A stretch of DNA of 14,825 bases from Escherichia coli. GTDB lineage: Bacteria > Pseudomonadota > Gammaproteobacteria > Enterobacterales > Enterobacteriaceae. Made by a program: the position numbers and the translations under genes. The notes beneath the pieces were generated by a model. The model saw only the letters and a list, made by a program, of their open reading frames with translations, did not search any database and was not told the DNA's origin. The stretch lies in the NCBI RefSeq assembly GCF_044324875.1, contig NZ_CP172189.1; one strand, given 5' to 3'. Positions 5,934 through 12,742 of this stretch are shown piece by piece (the first letter of the stretch is position 1; each line of letters starts with the position of its first letter).

Positions 5934-7487
5934 TTACCATCCCAGCGACGGGCCATCCAGTGTCCGTTCCTGTATTTCCAGATGGCGCTCACGCTCTAGG
6001 AATAGCTCATGTTCACGTTCCTGTATCAGTAGTTCGTCCCTTATCTCCTGCTCTCGCTGTATAACTGGCTCAAGTGTTCTGTCTGCTCGCTCAAGTGCTG
6101 CACCTGCTGACTCAACTGCATGACCCGCTCGTTCAGCATCGCGTTGTCCCGTTGCGTAAGCGAAAACATCTTCTGCAATTCCACGAAGGCGCTCTCCCAT
6201 TCGTTCAGCCGCTGCATATAGTCCTGTTGCAGCTGCTCTAAGGCGTTCAGCAAATGTGTTTCCAGCTCTGTCACTCTGTGTCACTCCTTCAGATGTACCC
6301 ACTCTTTCCCCTGAAAGGGAATCACCTCTGCTGATTTCCCGTACGGAAGGACCAGAAATTTCCTGTTCCCGTCCTGCACGAACTCCACGCCCCATGTCTT
6401 CGCGTTCAGTTTCTGCAATGTCTCTTCCTGCTTCCTGATATCTTCCAGGTTCGCCTGTATCCTCCCGCCAAGATACCAGAGCGTCCCGCCACTCGCGGTA
6501 AACAGGAGAAAGACTATCCCCAGTAACATCATGCCCGTATTCCCTGCCAGCTTTAACACGTCCTTCCTGTGCTGCCTCATCGCCTCTTTCACCCCTTCCC
6601 GGTGTTTCTCCAGCGATTCCTCTGTCGAGGCTGTGAACAGGGCTATAGCGTCTCTGATTTTCGTCTCGTTTGATGTCACAGCCTCGCTTACAGATTCGCC
6701 GAGCCTCCTGAACTCGTTGTTCAGCACTTTCTCTGTAGATTCGGCTCTCTCTTTCAGCTTTTTCTCGAACTCCGCGCCCGTCTGTAAAAGATTGCTCATA
6801 AAACGCTCCTTTCAGCCTGATATTCTTCCCGCCGTTCGGGTCTGCAATGCTGATGCTGCTTCGCGTCACCCTGACCACTTCAAGCCCCGCCTCTGTGAGC
6901 GCCTGAATCACATCCTGACGGCCTTTTATCTCCCCTACATGATAAAGAGCGTCTATCCCGCGTGTGACGCTCTCAGCAAGCGCCTGTTTCGTTTCCGGCA
7001 GGTTATCAGAGAGAGTCAGTATCCGGCGGTTCTCCGGGGCGTTGGGGTCATGCAGCCCGTAATGGTGATTCACCAGCGTCTGCCAGGCATCAATTCTCGG
7101 CCTGTCTGCCCGGTCGTAGTACGGCTGGAGACGTTTTCCGGTCTGTAGCTCCATGTTCGGAATGACAAAATTCAGCTCAAGCCGTCCCTTGTCCTGGTGC
7201 TCCACCCACAGGATGCTGTACTGATTCTTTTCGAGACCTGGCATCAGTACGCGCTCAAAGCTCGCCATCACTTTTTCACGTCCTCCCGGCGGCAGCTCCT
7301 TCTCCGCGAACGACAGAACGCCTGACGTGTATTTCTTCGCAAATGGCGTGGCATCGATGAGTTCCCGGACTTCTTCCGGATTACCCTGAAGCACCGTTGC
7401 GCCTTCGCGGTTACGCTCCCTCCCCAGCAGGTAATCAACCGGACCACTGCCACCACCTTTTCCCCTGGCATGAAATTTAACTATCAT
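5934..7487 (-). CDS. mbeA: ColE1-type mobilisation relaxase MbeA (MOB-HEN family), 517 aa
   Basis: MIVKFHARGKGGGSGPVDYLLGRERNREGATVLQGNPEEVRELIDA... is the MbeA N-terminal relaxase domain; the C-terminal half is Arg/Glu-rich. The ORF-track start (7535) is a 16-codon upstream extension; the true ATG is at 7487 and overlaps the mbeC stop. Confidence 0.9.
   Translation of the reverse strand: MIVKFHARGKGGGSGPVDYLLGRERNREGATVLQGNPEEVRELIDATPFAKKYTSGVLSFAEKELPPGGREKVMASFERVLMPGLEKNQYSILWVEHQDKGRLELNFVIPNMELQTGKRLQPYYDRADRPRIDAWQTLVNHHYGLHDPNAPENRRILTLSDNLPETKQALAESVTRGIDALYHVGEIKGRQDVIQALTEAGLEVVRVTRSSISIADPNGGKNIRLKGAFYEQSFTDGRGVREKAERESRIYRESAEQRVQEARRICKRGCDIKRDENQRRYSPVHSLDRGIAGETPGRGERGDEAAQEGRVKAGREYGHDVTGDSLSPVYREWRDALVSWREDTGEPGRYQEAGRDIAETEREDMGRGVRAGREQEISGPSVREISRGDSLSGERVGTSEGVTQSDRAGNTFAERLRAAATGLYAAAERMGERLRGIAEDVFAYATGQRDAERAGHAVESAGAALERADRTLEPVIQREQEIRDELLIQEREHELFLERERHLEIQERTLDGPSLGW
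6041..6274 (-). CDS. mbeD: MbeD, 77-aa mobilisation protein nested inside mbeA in another frame; GTG start
   Basis: MTELETHLLNALEQLQQDYMQRLNEWESAF...; GAAGGAG ribosome-binding site 9 nt upstream of GTG at 6274; same arrangement as the ColE1 mob region. Confidence 0.7.
   Translation of the reverse strand: MTELETHLLNALEQLQQDYMQRLNEWESAFVELQKMFSLTQRDNAMLNERVMQLSQQVQHLSEQTEHLSQLYSESRR
6281..6799 (-). CDS. mbeB: MbeB, 172-aa mobilisation protein with one predicted TM segment, nested inside mbeA in another frame
   Basis: MSNLLQTGAEFEKKLKERAESTEK...MMLLGIVFLLFTASGGTLWYLGG...; AAGGAG ribosome-binding site 8 nt upstream of ATG at 6799. Confidence 0.75.
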   Translation of the reverse strand: MSNLLQTGAEFEKKLKERAESTEKVLNNEFRRLGESVSEAVTSNETKIRDAIALFTASTEESLEKHREGVKEAMRQHRKDVLKLAGNTGMMLLGIVFLLFTASGGTLWYLGGRIQANLEDIRKQEETLQKLNAKTWGVEFVQDGNRKFLVLPYGKSAEVIPFQGKEWVHLKE

Positions 7488-7824
7488 CCCGCGCCCCCTG
7501 TTCCCTGACGGCCAGACGCAGCCGGCGCAGCTCATCCCCGATGGCCATCAGTGCGGCCACCACCTGAACCCGATCACCGGAAGACCACTGCCCGCTGTTC
7601 ACCTTCCTCGCGGTCTGATTCAGGTTATTCCCGATGGCGGCCAGCTGACGCAGTAACGGCGGTGCCAGTGTCGGCAGCTTCCCGGAACGGGCAACCGGCT
7701 CCCCCAGGCAGACCCGCCGCATCCATACCGCCAGTTGTTTACCCTCACAGCGTTCCAGTAACCGGGCATGTTCATCATCAGTAACCCGTATCGTGAGCAT
7801 CCTCTCGCGTTTCATCGGTATCAT
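7477..7824 (-). CDS. mbeC: MbeC/MobC-type relaxosome accessory protein (ribbon-helix-helix)
   Basis: ...MLTIRVTDDEHARLLERCEGKQLAVWMRRVCLGEPVARSGKLPT...; stop overlaps the mbeA start. Start codon uncertain (ATG at 7833, 7824, 7815 or 7800); copy C lacks the 7833 start in frame. Confidence 0.85.
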   Translation of the reverse strand: MIPMKRERMLTIRVTDDEHARLLERCEGKQLAVWMRRVCLGEPVARSGKLPTLAPPLLRQLAAIGNNLNQTARKVNSGQWSSGDRVQVVAALMAIGDELRRLRLAVREQGARDDS

Positions 7825-7864
7825 TACCCCCATGAACAGAAATCCCCCTTACACGGAGGCATCA

Positions 7865-8056
7865 GTGACTAAACAGGAAAAAACCGCCCTTAACATGGCC
7901 CGCTTCATCAGAGGCCAGACATTAACGCTGCTGGAGAAACTCAACGAACTGGACGTGGATGAACAGGCAGATATCTGTGAATCGCTTCACGACCACGCCG
8001 ATGAGCTTTACCGCAGCTGCCTCGCACGTTTCGGGGATGACGGTGAAAACCTCTGA
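7865..8056 (+). CDS. rop: Rop/Rom, 63-aa RNA I-RNA II pairing modulator (four-helix bundle); GTG start
   Basis: V/MTKQEKTALNMARFIRGQTLTLLEKLNELDVDEQADICESLHDHADELYRSCLARFGDDGENL; GGAGG ribosome-binding site at 7855-7859. The ORF-track entry 7793-8056 is an upstream in-frame extension. Confidence 0.9.
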   Translation: MTKQEKTALNMARFIRGQTLTLLEKLNELDVDEQADICESLHDHADELYRSCLARFGDDGENL

Positions 8057-8164
8057 CACATGCAGCTCCCGGAGACGGACACAGCTTGTCTGTGAGCGGA
8101 TGCCGGGAGCAGACAAGCCCGTCAGGGCGCGTCAGCAGGTGTTAGCGGGTGTCGGGGCGCAGCC

Positions 8165-8260
8165 CTGACCCAGTCACGTAGCGATAGCGGAGTGTATACT
8201 AGCTTAACTATGCGGCATCAGTGCGGATTGTATGAAAAGTGCACCATAGCCGATGTGAAA
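8165..8260. other. oriT/bom (basis of mobility) region of module B with the nic-site motif
   Basis: cagtcacgtagcgatagcggagtgtatactAgcttaactatgcggc matches the pBR322/ColE1 bom nic region, between rop and the origin. Confidence 0.7.
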
Positions 8261-8439
8261 TGCCGCACAGATGCGTAAGGAGAAAATGCAACTTCCGACA
8301 CTCTTCCGCTTCCTCGCTCACTGACTCGCTACGCTCGGTCGTTCGGCTGCGGCGAGCGGTACCGGCGCACTCAAAGGCGGTAATACGGTTATCCACAGAA
8401 TCAGGGGAGAAGGCCGGAAAGAACATGTGAGCAAAAAGG

Positions 8440-9030
8440 CAAAGGCCAACGAAAGGCCGCGCCGCTGGCGTTTTTCCATAGGCTCCGCCCCCCTGACGAG
8501 CATCACAAAAATCGACGCTCAAGTCAGAGGTGGCGAAACCCGACAGGACTATAAAGATACCAGGCGTTTCCCCCTGGAAGCTCCCTCGTGCGCTCTCCTG
8601 TTCCGACCCTGCCGCTTACCGGATACCTGTCCGCCTTTCTCCCTTCGGGAAGCGTGGCGCTTTCTCATAGCTCACGCTGTTGGTATCTCGGCTTGGTGTA
8701 GGTCGTTCGCTCCAAGCTGGGCTGTGTGCACGAACCCCCCGTTCAGCCCGACCGCTGCGCCTTATCCGGTAACTATCGTCTTGAGTCCAACCCGGTAAGG
8801 CACGCCTTAACGCCACTGGCAGCAGCCACTGGTAACCGGATTAGCAGAGCGATGATGGCACAAACGGTGCTACAGAGTTCTTGAAGTAGTGGCCCGACTA
8901 CGGCTACACTGAAAGGACAGTATTTGGTATCTGCGCTCTGCTGAAGCCAGTTACCTTGGTTAAGCAGTTCCCCAACTGACCTAACCTTCGATCAAACCGC
9001 CTCCCCAGGCGGTTTTTTCGTTTACAGGCA
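8440..9030 (-). other. ColE1-type origin of replication, copy B (RNA II primer region, transcribed on the minus strand)
   Basis: Near-identity to the pMB1/pBR322 ori body (ggcgtttttccataggctccgcccccctgacgagcatcacaaaaatcgacgctcaagtcagaggtggcgaaacccgacaggactataaagataccaggcg...). Confidence 0.9.
8917..9024 (+). ncRNA. RNA I of origin copy B, with stem-loops 2 and 3 different from copy A
   Basis: Starts acagtatttggtatctgcgctctgctgaagccagttacctt as in copy A, then diverges (ggttaagcagttccccaactgacctaaccttcgatcaaaccgcctccccaggcggttttttcgttt). RNA II promoter follows at 9026-9075 on the minus strand. Confidence 0.75.
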
Positions 9031-9080
9031 GCAGATTACGCGCAGAAAAAAAGGATCTCAAGAAGATCCTTTTAACTTTT

Positions 9081-9221
9081 CTACTGAACCGCGATCCCCG
9101 TCAGTTTAGAAGAGGAGGATGGTGCGACAGTCCCTCCCTGAACATCGCGGATGTAATTAGCTTGGCAGCCTGATAGCAAAGCCATCAAGACAAGCATCCC
9201 TCCTGATAATATCATTTTCAT
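9081..9221 (-). CDS. Colicin lysis (release) lipoprotein, 46 aa, of the second colicin locus
   Basis: Hand-translated [46 protein letters not shown]; lipobox LLSGC; GAGG ribosome-binding site upstream. Mature part almost identical to Kil of module A. Confidence 0.8.
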
Positions 9222-9340
9222 ATATTCCCTCATTAACACATACCCCTAATCTTAGGATGACCATTACTTGTACAGCATGATATGCTTATACACATCTACA
9301 ACTAAATTAATAATAATGAAAAGCTTGGAGAGTTATACCA

Positions 9341-9865
9341 ATGAGAAAAGAGCACACTGACAATAAAGATTTAAACAGGACGCTTTTTTTGATTACTTTT
9401 GCAGGCATAACACCATTAATCATTATTTTTATAACTTATACATCAAACCCCAAGTTCTATTTAATTAGCATCATTTTTGATAACACACAAAATATACCTT
9501 CAATAATTTCCGCATACAATCCTGTGATGACAAAGGTGATGGATATCTACGGGAAAAGCGCTCCCTTACTGGCACTTATTGCTTTTACTCTCCAACTCCG
9601 CGACAGAAAGCTAGAGACAATAGCCAACAGAGAAAAACTAATTACTGCCAGCATATTTAGTCCATTTTTTTATGCTTTTTATGCATATTTCTTTCTGTGG
9701 AATAATTTCGAATTAACCACTGCAGGTAGGACTGTCAGATGGATGTCCGATAATGATTTTACTTTGTTTATTTTTTACGCCTGCCTCTATTTTTGCTCTT
9801 TCTTTATGACTTATGCTCTGTGTTATATTCCGGTTGTGTCATATAAACTCTGGAAAGAAAGGTAG
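9341..9865 (+). CDS. Immunity protein for an A-type pore-forming colicin (colicin A/B/N/U/Y class), 174 aa, four predicted TM helices
   Basis: 174-aa aromatic-rich protein with four hydrophobic segments, convergent with a colicin pore-domain remnant and next to a lysis gene; GGAGA ribosome-binding site at 9325-9329. Which colicin it serves cannot be decided from memory. Confidence 0.75.
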   Translation: MRKEHTDNKDLNRTLFLITFAGITPLIIIFITYTSNPKFYLISIIFDNTQNIPSIISAYNPVMTKVMDIYGKSAPLLALIAFTLQLRDRKLETIANREKLITASIFSPFFYAFYAYFFLWNNFELTTAGRTVRWMSDNDFTLFIFYACLYFCSFFMTYALCYIPVVSYKLWKER

Positions 9866-9882
9866 TCTTCTTGACTACCTTT
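9860..9882. terminator. Bidirectional terminator-like hairpin between the convergent immunity and colicin genes
   Basis: AGGTAGTC-ttctt-GACTACCT followed by TTT on the plus strand and by TTT/CTTT on the minus strand. Confidence 0.5.
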
Positions 9883-9892
9883 CGACTCTAGG

Positions 9893-10103
9893 TTAATACG
9901 CAGGGCGAATAATTTCGTTATTTAACCTGTCTATAAATTTGTCATCAATCAATGCTCCAATAAAACTGGCTATAATAATACCGATAATCCCTACGACTGC
10001 AGCTGATGCCCCCACAGCAAGCAGGTAAGCTCCAAGGGTGGCAGAAAAAATAGCAAGAGCCACAGCAGAAGCAATACCACTGACAACCCAGGACTCGACC
10101 TCC
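9893..10103 (-). pseudogene. 3' remnant (~69 codons) of a pore-forming colicin gene: hydrophobic hairpin and C-terminus of the channel domain; the 5' part is replaced by an IS21-family element
   Basis: ...EVESWVVSGIASAVALAIFSATLGAYLLAVGASAAVVGIIGIIIASFIGALIDDKFIDRLNNEIIRPAY resembles the C-terminal hairpin and end of colicin channel domains (compare the colicin E1 C-terminus in this window). Upstream codons of the track ORF (MMPNCDRRWMPNHDRF...) come from IS terminal repeats. Confidence 0.6.
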
Positions 10104-10123
10104 TGCAAAATGGCATCTGAATC

Positions 10124-10232
10124 GATCGCAGTTTGGCATTCGAATCGATCATGATTTGGCATCCATCTCCGATCACAGTTTGGCATCACAATCGATCACG
10201 ATTTGGCATGCTTCCGATCATTGATTGGCATC
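10124..10232 (+). repeat. Five direct repeats (~23-bp period) of CGATCANNRTTTGGCAT at the IS left end; likely transposase binding sites
   Basis: Copies at 10124-10140, 10147-10163, 10171-10187, 10194-10210 and 10216-10232, with related copies in inverted orientation at the right end (12680-12730). Confidence 0.7.
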
Positions 10233-10305
10233 CTGCCAGTCACTCCGGGAATTAACTCTTTTCACCACAGTCTCCATTGCCGTGTTTAAACCAGTGGAGA
10301 CGTCA

Positions 10306-11871
10306 ATGTCCAGAAAGAGAAAATCCAGGAGCACTATGGAAACCTGTTTTAAGATCCTTCAGCTCAAGTTCGACAAGAAGCTGACTAACCGTTGTATCGG
10401 ACTGACGTTACACATCAGCGCCTCAACCGTTTTTGAGGTTCTTGCCCGCTTCAAAGCCTCTTCTCTGTCATGGCCATTACCTGCTGATATATCCCATGAC
10501 ACGCTGGAGAAACTCATTTTTCCGCCCAAAGACACCTTTGCATCAGAGCTTGTAATGCCTGACATGTTGTACTTCGATACGGAAATGAGAAAACCAGGTG
10601 TGACGCGGCAACTGTTGTGGATGGAATACAAGGCACAGGCGGGTAACAAAGCGATGGGATACTCGCACTTCTGCCGTTGCTACCGGGAGTGGAAAAAAAC
10701 GCGACGTCTCTCCATGCGCCAGGAGCATCGTGCCGGCGAAAAGCTTTTTATCGACTTCTGTGGTCCTACGGTTCCTGTTATTAATCCGGACACCGGTGAG
10801 ATACGCCGCGTGGCAATCTTCGTGGCCGTAATGGGGGCGTCCAACTATACCTACGTTGAAGCGTGCGAAGGTCAGGACATGATGTCATGGTTAAATGCCC
10901 ACAGCCGTTGCCTGACCTTCCTGGGCGGCGTACCGAAGCTGCTCATCCCCGATAACCTCAGAAGCGCAGTGAAAAAGGCCGATCGATATGAGCCTGTCAT
11001 CAACGACAGTTATCAGGCACTGGCTGAGCACTATGGCACGGTTATCATCCCGGCCCGACCACGCAAACCTAAAGATAAACCAAAAGCAGAAAACGGCGTC
11101 CTCATCGTTGAACGATGGCTTCTTGCCCGCATCCGTAATGAAACCTTCCACACGCTCAGGGCGCTGAATGCGCGCCTTAGGGAGTTACTGACAGACATGA
11201 ATAACCGGCCAATGAAGGGGTACGGCAATCAAACCCGTGCAGAACGCTTCCGCATACTGGATGCGCCAGCACTCTCTCCGCTGCCTCTGGCACCTTATGA
11301 ATACACGGAATACAAAGCTGTGAAGGTTGGCCCTGACTACCACGTTGAATATGCCCGTCACTGGTACTCCGTTCCACACGAACTGGTCGGTCAGCGTCTG
11401 TCACTGAAGGCGGGGCAGTCGGTGGTACAGCTCTGGCACAAGGGGCAGTGTGTGGCGCAACATCCGCGCAGCACACATGAATATAAACACACAACCAATC
11501 CGCTTCACATGCCAGAGCGCCACCGGCAGCACGGGACATGGACACCGGAACGCCTGATCGAGCAGGGAAAACGTACGGGCCCGTCCACAGGCCGGGTGGT
11601 TGAATCCATGCTGAAGGCAAAACCCCATCCGGAACTGGCTTATCGTGCAGTTCTGGGGCTGCTGGCACTTCAGAAAAAATACGGCCCGGAACGGCTGGAA
11701 AAGGCCTGTTACGTTGCCCTGCACTATAACGCCCCTGACAGACGCTTTATCGACAATCTGCTGCGTCACCATCGGGAGAACCTGGAGCTTCCATTATCCC
11801 GCCAGGGCGAACAACATCCGGCATATGCTTCAGAGCATGAAAACCTGCGTGGTCCGGGCTACTACCACTGA
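10306..11871 (+). CDS. istA: IS21-family transposase IstA, 521 aa from ATG at 10306
   Basis: N-terminal HTH region, DDE-type catalytic core, typical IstA length; GGAGA ribosome-binding site 7 nt upstream. The track start at 10225 is a TTG inside the terminal repeats and is unlikely to be real. Confidence 0.85.
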   Translation: MSRKRKSRSTMETCFKILQLKFDKKLTNRCIGLTLHISASTVFEVLARFKASSLSWPLPADISHDTLEKLIFPPKDTFASELVMPDMLYFDTEMRKPGVTRQLLWMEYKAQAGNKAMGYSHFCRCYREWKKTRRLSMRQEHRAGEKLFIDFCGPTVPVINPDTGEIRRVAIFVAVMGASNYTYVEACEGQDMMSWLNAHSRCLTFLGGVPKLLIPDNLRSAVKKADRYEPVINDSYQALAEHYGTVIIPARPRKPKDKPKAENGVLIVERWLLARIRNETFHTLRALNARLRELLTDMNNRPMKGYGNQTRAERFRILDAPALSPLPLAPYEYTEYKAVKVGPDYHVEYARHWYSVPHELVGQRLSLKAGQSVVQLWHKGQCVAQHPRSTHEYKHTTNPLHMPERHRQHGTWTPERLIEQGKRTGPSTGRVVESMLKAKPHPELAYRAVLGLLALQKKYGPERLEKACYVALHYNAPDRRFIDNLLRHHRENLELPLSRQGEQHPAYASEHENLRGPGYYH

Positions 11872-11886
11872 CAGAAGGAACAACAG

Positions 11887-12643
11887 TATGAGTGATAACC
11901 TGTTAAACAAACTGACCCAACTGAAACTCCCGGCGATGGCCGGGAGCCTGATACGGCAGCGGGAAACGCCTCAGACCTACGACGAACTGTCGTTCGAGGA
12001 AAGGCTGACGCTGCTGGTTGATGACGAGCTTCTGAGCAGGGAAAACAGCCGTGTGGCACGGTTGAGAAAAAATGCCGGCCTGAAATACCAGGCAACACCG
12101 GAAGGGCTGCGCTATCCGGCCTCAAGAGGTCTGCGGGCTGAACAGATGAGAGAACTGCTGAACGGCCACTACATAACCCACAGGAAAAACCTGCTGATAA
12201 CCGGTCCGACAGGATGTGGCAAGAGCTGGATAGCCAATGCGCTGGGCGAACAGGCATGTCGACAGAAACACAGCGTCCGGTACTGTAGAACCGGGCGATT
12301 ACTGGAACAACTGGCTCAGGGACGTGTTGATGGCAGCTGGCTGAAATATCTGAAACAGTTGCAAAAAATACAGGTTCTAATCCTGGACGATCTGGGGCTG
12401 GAACAGTTAAGTAACGCCCAGTGTAATGACCTTCTGGAGCTCATAGAGGATCGTTACGGACAAAGCAGCACGATAGTGGTAAGCCAGTTCCCGGTAGATA
12501 AATGGCATGGTCTGATGGAGAACCCAACAACAGCAGATGCCATCCTGGACAGACTGGTACATAACTCACACCGAGTGGTCCTTCAGGGAGAGTCACTGAG
12601 GAAAAATCCCCCGGTAGTGGAAAGCAGCGAAAAAACGCGTTAA
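11887..12643 (+). CDS. istB: IS21-family ATP-binding helper IstB (AAA+), 251 aa
   Basis: MSDNLLNKLTQLKLPAMAGSL..., Walker A GPTGCGKS, Walker B ILILDDLG; GAAGGAA ribosome-binding site. The track ORF 11645-12643 is an upstream extension overlapping istA. Confidence 0.9.
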
Positions 12644-12742
12644 AAAGCGGTAGAAAAAGTTAAGTTCCCGGTTGATCGAATGGATGCGAATCGCTGATCG
12701 GACTTCGATGCCAATCCGTGATCGAATAGAGCGGAATACGCA

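Follow-up and report, generated by a model that had tools for sequence, protein, structure and literature searches.

Two RNA I genes of the ColE1 type lie on the plus strand of the window, a 14,825-nt stretch of Escherichia coli DNA analysed at its full length. The Rfam model for RNA I (RF00106, RNAI) matches twice, at 9-113 with 73.8 bits and at 8919-9021 with 83.4 bits, and both matches stand above the gathering score of 47. The origin at the edge of the window and the internal origin are referred to here as A and B. An exact 41-mer comprising the 5' tail and stem-loop 1 occurs at 7-47 and 8917-8957 in two copies only, where shuffled sequences give an expectation of 0. The initial annotation had described two RNA I genes with a common stem-loop 1 region, which this repeat confirms, and the downstream sequences it quoted for copies A and B are found as written. 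Its span for RNA I-B, 8917-9024, holds at the start, but homology with the 108-nt ColE1 RNA I places the 3' end at ~9022-9023.

In their minimum-free-energy folds, RNA I-A and RNA I-B (z = -5.4 and -5.5 against shuffles) both have three hairpins after a 5' tail. Both origins display the traits of a ColE1-type RNA I, namely a length of ~108 nt, a single-stranded 5' tail, three stem-loops, and an intrinsic terminator; in RNA I-B, a terminator-like site with a T-run falls at 8994-9015. Four compensatory (covarying) pairs, found among 12 distinct family members with CCCC loops, back stem-loops 2 and 3. At 8981, within the stem of stem-loop 2, RNA I-B has one A.C mismatch not seen in other family members. 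The Rfam match, the fold, and the compensatory changes in the family agree on a three stem-loop structure for copy B, and folding returned different rather than identical loops 2 and 3 for the two copies. Loops 2 and 3 are completely different between RNA I-A and RNA I-B, as had been claimed, but the difference is not one of loops alone; the stems of stem-loops 2 and 3 differ too.

The other parts of a replicon surround each RNA I gene (Table 1). In both origins, homology places a convergent RNA II promoter just past the RNA I terminator and an oriV ~555 nt past the RNA II start. The RNA I promoter of origin B scores under the promoter-scan threshold and has the same position as that of ColE1 in the alignment. 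The RNA II promoter of origin B (9025..9061) is conserved with ColE1 and CloDF13 in alignment, and RNA II runs from it leftwards to oriV, whose position we take from knowledge of ColE1 to be ~445 nt from the RNA I start, as it is there. Many ColE1-type replicons, although not all, have a rom/rop gene; both origins have one here, and the two Rom proteins differ at 2 residues. The stretch 8300-9340 around origin B is 99.3-99.9% identical to 10 records of autonomous colicin Y plasmids. Because both origins are 99.9-100% identical to autonomous natural plasmids, both are presumably functional. Judged by these assignments, the plasmid carries two complete ColE1-type replicons, each with an RNA II promoter, RNA I, oriV, and rom.

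Table 1. Positions of predicted features of the two replicons and of the two plasmid junctions in the window.
Feature	Position	Strand	Details	Basis
RNA I gene, origin B	8917..9023	+		Rfam match, fold, identity to known plasmids
RNA I-B 5' tail	8917-8925	+		Fold
RNA I-B stem-loop 1	8926-8955	+		Fold
RNA I-B stem-loop 2	8958-8986	+	Loop UUCCCCAA	Fold
RNA I-B stem-loop 3/terminator	8989-9020	+	Loop CUCCCCAG, U-run after	Fold
RNA I promoter, origin B	8881..8910	+	-35 TTGAAG 8881-8886; -10 TACACT 8905-8910; start 8917	Homology with ColE1
RNA II promoter/start, origin B	9025..9061	-	-35 TTGAGA, complement of 9056-9061; -10 TAATCT, complement of 9033-9038; inferred +1 9025	Homology
oriV, origin B	8468..8476	-	T-run about 8470-8474; plus strand GCGTTTTTCC	RNA-to-DNA transition region
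rom/rop, origin B	7865..8056	+	63 aa, GTG start	Same as Rop CDS annotated in pB771_9494
RNA I gene, origin A	7..114	+		Rfam match, fold, ColE1 identity
RNA I-A 5' tail	7-15	+		Fold
RNA I-A stem-loop 1	16-45	+		Fold
RNA I-A stem-loop 2	48-76	+	Loop UUGGUAG	Fold
RNA I-A stem-loop 3/terminator	77-113	+	Loop UUGGUAG	Fold
RNA I promoter, origin A	14796-14825	+	At window end	Equivalent of that of origin B
RNA II promoter/start, origin A	117..153	-	-35, complement of 148-153; -10, complement of 125-130; inferred +1 117	Sequence
oriV, origin A	14386..14390	-	T-run of CATTTTTCC; ~445 nt from RNA I start	Sequence
rom/rop, origin A	13780..13971	+	63 aa, GTG start	Same as Rop CDS annotated in pDETEC75 and ColE1
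cer core	3466..3495	-	Sole copy; left pColE1/pColY junction	Exact ColE1 cer core match
IS21-family element	10104..12746	+	Right junction; boundaries within a few bp	99.7-100% identity to ISSso4-family IS21 copies
istA ORF	10225-11871	+	Within the IS21-family element	
istB ORF	11645-12643	+	Within the IS21-family element	

Source of the divergent stem-loops

The two origins belong to a direct repeat of 2.3 kb (6827-9161 versus 12743-14825 + 1-253, ~95% identity) in which divergence is very uneven and sharply local to stem-loops 2 and 3. From oriV to the end of stem-loop 1 (8470-8957), B is identical to A at 481/488 positions, and the RNA II promoter region beyond stem-loops 2 and 3 (9025-9150) is identical at 119 of 126. 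Stem-loops 2 and 3 themselves (8958-9024) retain identity at only 34/70 (Fisher p = 3e-30 for this segment versus the 481/488 segment). Neutral drift of these two stem-loops, without effect on specificity, is a barely credible account of such a pattern. It would have to concentrate 51% divergence in 70 nt next to 488 nt that diverge by only 1.4%. In the family, compensatory changes preserve the pairing of the stems of stem-loops 2 and 3 and the loops are conserved, and loop identity is what sets specificity among ColE1-type replicons (PMC9458437). The divergent block is moreover 95.5% identical to CloDF13, another known replicon, which argues that it arose by exchange and not by drift.

RNA I-A is that of classical ColE1 (NC_001371.1), with 108/108 positions and all three loops identical, so that origin A has the loop identity that marks the ColE1 incompatibility group. 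Copy A had been described as ColE1/pMB1 sequence; the ColE1 half of that label stands (loop 3 is UUGGUAG), and the pMB1 variant (CUGGUAG) does not apply. RNA I-B is identical at 108/108 positions to the RNA I of three colicin Y plasmids, pCol-Let (NC_002487.1), pB771_9494, and pSCU-101-1. Neither RNA I is new, both being identical in sequence to published plasmids.

Comparison with CloDF13 (NC_002119.1) reveals where the divergent part of origin B has its closest relation. RNA I-B is 90% identical to the CloDF13 RNA I over nt 6-108, and the agreement rises to 64/67 (95.5%) in stem-loops 2 and 3, where both loops are identical. From oriV to stem-loop 1, origin B matches ColE1 at 481/488 positions (98.6%) and CloDF13 at only 387/531 (73%). 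The RNA I of origin B is, on this comparison, a natural mosaic of a ColE1-type tail and stem-loop 1 with CloDF13-type stem-loops 2 and 3. With a different stem-loop 1 and no more than 73% identity in the remaining origin sequence, B is not simply a CloDF13-group replicon; membership of that group entails three like loops, and the stem-loop 1 of B is of the ColE1 type. Nor does B pair as a member of the ColE1 group, its loops 2 and 3 lacking complementarity to ColE1 RNA II. The comparison with known RNA I types suggested at the outset thus yields a clear answer: ColE1 for A, pCol-Let for B, and the CloDF13 type for stem-loops 2 and 3 of B. An RSF1030-like RNA I-B was also considered and is not supported, the measured match being CloDF13.

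A wider survey of RNA I provides only a lead, namely that the first hairpin reassorts freely with the class of hairpins 2 and 3 and that loops 2 and 3 are usually identical. A genome scan supplied 63 distinct RNA I sequences, a set that is biased in its retrieval and made up of related sequences. In it, 8 loop-1 classes accompany the stem-loop 2/3 class CCCC/CCCC and 6 accompany the UUGGUAG pair, and the predicted core of loop 2 equals that of loop 3 in 41/63 (8.6 ± 2.6 in shuffles). A tentative and on balance doubtful extension of this lead is that stem-loops 2 and 3 might constitute a horizontally exchanged 'specificity cassette' that is recombined onto conserved backbones with its loops kept alike, new incompatibility groups arising by exchange and not through point mutations. 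If so, origin B, with its ColE1 backbone and CloDF13 cassette, would exemplify such an exchange, the window would be a fusion of two plasmids differing essentially only in their cassette, and family members residing together would stay coupled at a low level through the common stem-loop 1 and tail. The survey is of modest value for plasmid typing and the design of compatible vectors.

Loop pairing, incompatibility and co-residence

RNA I contacts nascent RNA II via complementary loops, pairs with it from the 5' tail, and blocks primer maturation (PMC8683028; PMC9458437). Primer function survives deletion of RNA II stem-loops I and II, which pair with RNA I stem-loops 3 and 2, but it requires RNA II stem-loop III, which pairs with RNA I stem-loop 1 (PMC12966454). 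Because the first two are dispensable and the third is not, stem-loops 2 and 3 of RNA I are free to vary and stem-loop 1 is conserved. ColE1 and CloDF13 represent different incompatibility groups (PMC9458437). Chaillou et al. reported that divergent loops are not enough by themselves to predict compatibility (PMC9458437).

Loops 2 and 3 of the two origins discriminate sharply in predicted pairing. Cognate pairs are fully Watson-Crick, with a dG of -13 to -14.5 kcal/mol (-13.4 kcal/mol against ColE1 RNA II), versus at most two contiguous Watson-Crick pairs and a dG of -0.3 to +1.7 kcal/mol for the A × B cross-pairs. In ColE1-type control, RNA I starts by 'kissing' the loops of nascent RNA II, then zips from its 5' tail and inhibits primer maturation. 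With no cross-complementarity of loops 2 and 3, each RNA I should pair with its cognate RNA II much more rapidly than with the heterologous one, and A and B would have largely separate copy-number feedback and different incompatibility specificities. The reading that two complete replicons, one ColE1 and one the colicin Y mosaic, are controlled in this largely separate way on one circle is given a probability of about 0.8; we infer the kinetic discrimination, the firing of both origins, and the incompatibility phenotype, whereas the sequences, folds, matches to known replicons, missing complementarity of loops 2 and 3, and natural co-residence were observed. Mutual titration of RNA I-A and RNA I-B through their UUGG/CCAA loops was considered and rejected, as the duplex reaches -2.8 kcal/mol, a value that 13% of random 7-mer pairs match.

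Stem-loop 1 and the tail are where the separation could fail. The 41-nt exact identity takes in both loop 1 and the tail, from which stable pairing nucleates, and the A × B cross-duplex of loop 1 is fully complementary at -18.4 kcal/mol, equal to the cognate duplex. Some heterologous inhibition through these common parts is plausible and could be reinforced by Rom, whose action does not depend on sequence. Carried further, partial cross-regulation might render the two origins and their parents semi-compatible and couple their copy numbers, a possibility we hold to be real if rather unlikely. Two points speak for such coupling: RNA I stem-loop 1 pairs with the RNA II stem-loop that is needed for function (PMC12966454), and loop divergence is no guarantee of compatibility (PMC9458437). 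The natural co-residence of the two RNA I types speaks against it.

E. coli SCU-101 has both types side by side, with an exact RNA I-B in pSCU-101-1 and an exact RNA I-A in pSCU-101-2, in separate plasmid records that are flagged linear and of which one is incomplete. A scan of species representatives adds two more strains with an RNA I pair that is identical in stem-loop 1 and different in stem-loops 2 and 3, one in Erwinia endophytica (L031/L032) and the other in Dickeya undicola (L036/L037). E. coli LH10-b-1 was examined as a second A + B pair and set aside, its 'A-type' plasmid having a p15A-like stem-loop 1 so that all three loops differ. ColE1 and p15A have loop 2 in common and are nevertheless compatible, which also counts against partial cross-regulation.

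Co-carriage of the two classes is not depleted in the species at large. The A-type stem-loop 2/3 segment is present in 287/5426 complete E. coli genomes and the B-type segment in 365/5426, and a query of the concatenated A and B segments matched 628 genomes with an exactly additive number of places. By inclusion-exclusion, both classes occur in 24/5426 genomes against 19.3 expected under independence, a comparison that has low power and concerns isolates, not segregation. One E. coli record has both classes (deduced from 292 + 378 - 669). Double carriage of the same class is not clearly depleted either, at no more than 5 genomes against ~7.6 expected for class A and no more than 13 against ~12.6 for class B.

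The proposal that the two origins have different incompatibility specificity therefore gains support from the absence of cross-complementarity in loops 2 and 3, the ColE1 and CloDF13 groupings, and the co-residence in SCU-101. The stronger wording, that the origins should not cross-regulate and could coexist, fares less evenly: coexistence is seen in SCU-101, and as separate plasmids the A and B replicons should be able to co-reside, but the common tail and stem-loop 1 allow partial cross-inhibition.

A fusion of two colicin plasmids and its known relatives

The window end runs on into the window start inside the ColE1-type origin A, so the window is the whole of a circular 14.8-kb molecule. 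The segment 12743-14825 + 1-3462 is pColE1, 99.7-100% identical to pDETEC75 and 99.5-100% to pColE1 plasmids; within it, 1-2277 is 100% identical to pDETEC75 and 12743-14825 is 99.95% identical to pColE1. The segment 3499-10107 is colicin Y plasmid sequence with full or 99.5% identity to pB771_9494 (99.5% over 4450-10107). The fused plasmid has colicin E1 production and immunity genes for colicin E1 and colicin U/Y.

The left junction between the two plasmids is confined to the cer core, the last pColE1-specific SNP lying at 3462 and the first pB771-specific SNP at 3499. The core is made up of a XerC arm, an 8-bp centre, and a XerD arm, and has no second match in the window at up to 3 mismatches. 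Because the fusion junction is inside the cer core, the parents were once in one cell, and the position of the switch suggests that XerCD recombined two co-resident plasmids at their cer sites. At the right junction, the IS21-family element follows the surviving 3' end of the colicin Y gene (to ~10107) and precedes a truncated pColE1 mbeA (from 12743) that corresponds to profile positions 1-225 of 497, the first 225 codons. ISSso4-family IS21 copies with 99.7-100% identity to the element are found in many E. coli genomes. Relative to a simple cer heterodimer, the rest of cya, exc1, exc2, a second cer, mbeD, mbeB, and the 3' part of mbeA are absent. The plasmid is probably a cer-mediated heterodimer of pColE1 and pColY, locked by an IS21-associated deletion of the second cer; with that site missing and the IS21-family element at the deletion, Xer cannot resolve it.

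Long repeats invite doubt about assembly. Two co-resident plasmids might have been misjoined via the 2.3-kb, 95%-identical direct repeat (6827-9161, 12743-253), which could mislead an assembler, and the architecture is so far singular: no identical 14.8-kb record exists in PLSDB or among complete E. coli genomes, and neither IS junction was found in 5426 complete E. coli genomes. A chimera is nonetheless highly improbable, and the difference between the RNA I genes would be real even then. Both junctions are outside the long repeat. At the first, parentage changes cleanly within the 30-bp cer core; at the second, an IS21-family element has a truncated colicin Y gene on one side and a truncated mbeA on the other. 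The exc1-exc2-cer region is present in single copy, as in a coherent biological product and not in two complete plasmids concatenated. Since the architecture reads as a cer heterodimer with an IS-associated deletion, an assembly artefact is unlikely.

The mosaic RNA I of origin B is older than the fused plasmid, as free-standing colicin Y plasmids already carry it. Post-fusion gene conversion between the repeats was weighed as the source of stem-loop 1 identity and rejected on similar grounds, the ColE1 stem-loop 1 being already present in free-standing pCol-Let-type plasmids. The pColE1-related plasmids p1405d and p172c were examined as further two-type plasmids; both are homodimer-like, with two ColE1-type origins each.

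For two origins on one molecule, 'could coexist' is not the relevant property of the pair; independent control and a dual incompatibility phenotype are. Two functional origins on one molecule are known from hybrid replicons, and a single active origin is established for composite replicons such as pSC101-ColE1 hybrids. The fused plasmid could replicate from one origin if the other is repressed, and it is conceivable, although we would not favour it, that a single origin drives replication, the one with the higher set-point firing while the other, kept in check by its own RNA I made in excess of what its set-point calls for, is replicated passively. With both control circuits intact, the more permissive should dominate, and the A.C mismatch at 8981 in the B-type RNA I could shift its set-point. 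Against this, nothing in the sequence inactivates either origin, and both are 99.9-100% identical to autonomous plasmids. Firing from a single origin would be compatible with different specificities, and the second origin would then be functionally silent in the fused plasmid.

Under largely separate control of the two origins, the fused molecule should show incompatibility towards both parental groups. It should exert this effect on both pColE1-type and pColY-type plasmids and be hard to displace by either. That different loops lead to different incompatibility in ColE1-type replicons is textbook knowledge, and the finding matters little on its own.

The components of the fused plasmid each have a known counterpart. 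The ColE1 replicon, with its RNA II primer, RNA I antisense, and Rom, has the same RNA I as origin A. Origin B has the tail, stem-loop 1, and 488 bp to oriV in common with ColE1 at 98.6% and departs from it in stem-loops 2 and 3 (34/70), where the loops are unrelated. The colicin Y plasmids (pCol-Let, NC_002487.1; pB771_9494; pNGF1_pCol_let_like) have the RNA I and origin sequence of origin B; in the window, however, the colicin Y gene is reduced to its 3' end by the IS21-family element and the replicon is joined to pColE1. CloDF13 differs from B by one compensatory G-C/A-U change in the stem of stem-loop 3, and in stem-loop 1 it has the loop CUGCGAA where B has CUGCUGA, together with changes in the stem. 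With regard to the cer/XerCD multimer system, the left-junction switch inside the cer core is as expected from Xer recombination, but the product here is a heterodimer of two different plasmids.

The pairs of ColE1-family replicons that are compatible in laboratory use (ColE1/pMB1, p15A, CloDF13, RSF1030) follow the same principle, by which different RNA I/RNA II loops assign related origins to separate incompatibility groups (PMC9458437). Origins A and B differ from these pairs in that the whole of stem-loop 1 and the tail is common over 41 nt and that both origins are on one molecule. p15A, for which natural p15A-like sequences were compared here, has loop 2 as in ColE1 and different loops 1 and 3, and is thus the mirror image of the A/B pair.

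The two junctions of the fused plasmid

The window's only cer core, on the minus strand, coincides exactly with the junction of its pColE1 and pColY parts. Up to 3462 the window matches pColE1 without a difference, and from 3499 onward it is identical to the free-standing colicin Y plasmid pB771_9494. A switch in parentage at this sole cer core suggests that the junction arose when XerCD recombined the cer sites of two distinct plasmids.

The second junction is occupied by an IS21-family element, flanked on one side by the colicin Y gene, of which only the 3' end is left, and on the other by a truncated pColE1 mbeA. The element stands where a simple heterodimer would be expected to carry a second cer, exc1, exc2, mbeD and mbeB, and the fusion was probably locked by deletion at this site. 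Both junctions of the element are absent from the 5426 complete E. coli genomes searched. Given the colicin and immunity genes present, the host would be predicted to produce colicin E1 and to carry immunity genes to both E1 and U/Y.

Coordinates of junction, insertion and colicin features in the window
Feature	Position	Strand	Remarks
Colicin E1 immunity gene	358-699	+	retained
Colicin E1 gene	696-2264	-	retained
pColE1/pColY junction	3462-3499		brackets cer core 3466-3495 (-)
Colicin U/Y immunity gene	9341-9865	+	174 aa, intact
Colicin Y gene remnant	9893-10107	-	approximately last 70 codons only
IS21-family element (ISSso4-like)	10104-12746		istA + istB

Two plasmids of chicken E. coli, p1405d (16543 bp) and p172c (13127 bp), are dimer-like pColE1 records with two ColE1-type origins apiece. 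In p1405d, copies of an ISSso4-family IS21 element also lie within mbeA, at an insertion site unlike that in the window.

Stem-loops 2 and 3 of RNA I

Loops 2 and 3 share an identical predicted core in 41 of 63 distinct natural RNA I sequences (shuffles, 8.6 ± 2.6), drawn from loci L013-L104, a biased retrieval of related sequences. Loop-1 class reassorts freely with stem-loop 2/3 class among the same 63. Together, the matching cores and this reassortment suggest that stem-loops 2 and 3 evolve and move as a single unit. At several loci, pMB1-, ColE1- or p15A-type RNA I genes also turned up in genome assemblies from non-hosts of these plasmids, including a Mycoplasma mycoides synthetic chromosome (L020), Streptomyces (L044, L051) and Streptococcus (L019, L079); contamination or sequence from cloning vectors is their most likely source.

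At position 8981, the RNA I of the colicin Y-type origin (origin B) carries C in the window, pCol-Let and pB771, and U in all other members of the CCCC-loop family, the RNA I sequences with B-class loops 2 and 3. The C leaves stem-loop 2 with an A.C mismatch in its stem, possibly affecting copy number.

Paired RNA I genes in other strains

Erwinia endophytica A41C3 (L031/L032) and Dickeya undicola 2B12 (L036/L037) each carry two RNA I genes with an identical 5' tail and stem-loop 1 and different stem-loops 2 and 3; in the Dickeya pair, a single base distinguishes loop 2. Both pairs have the same design as the window's RNA I from origin A, the classical ColE1 origin, and origin B.
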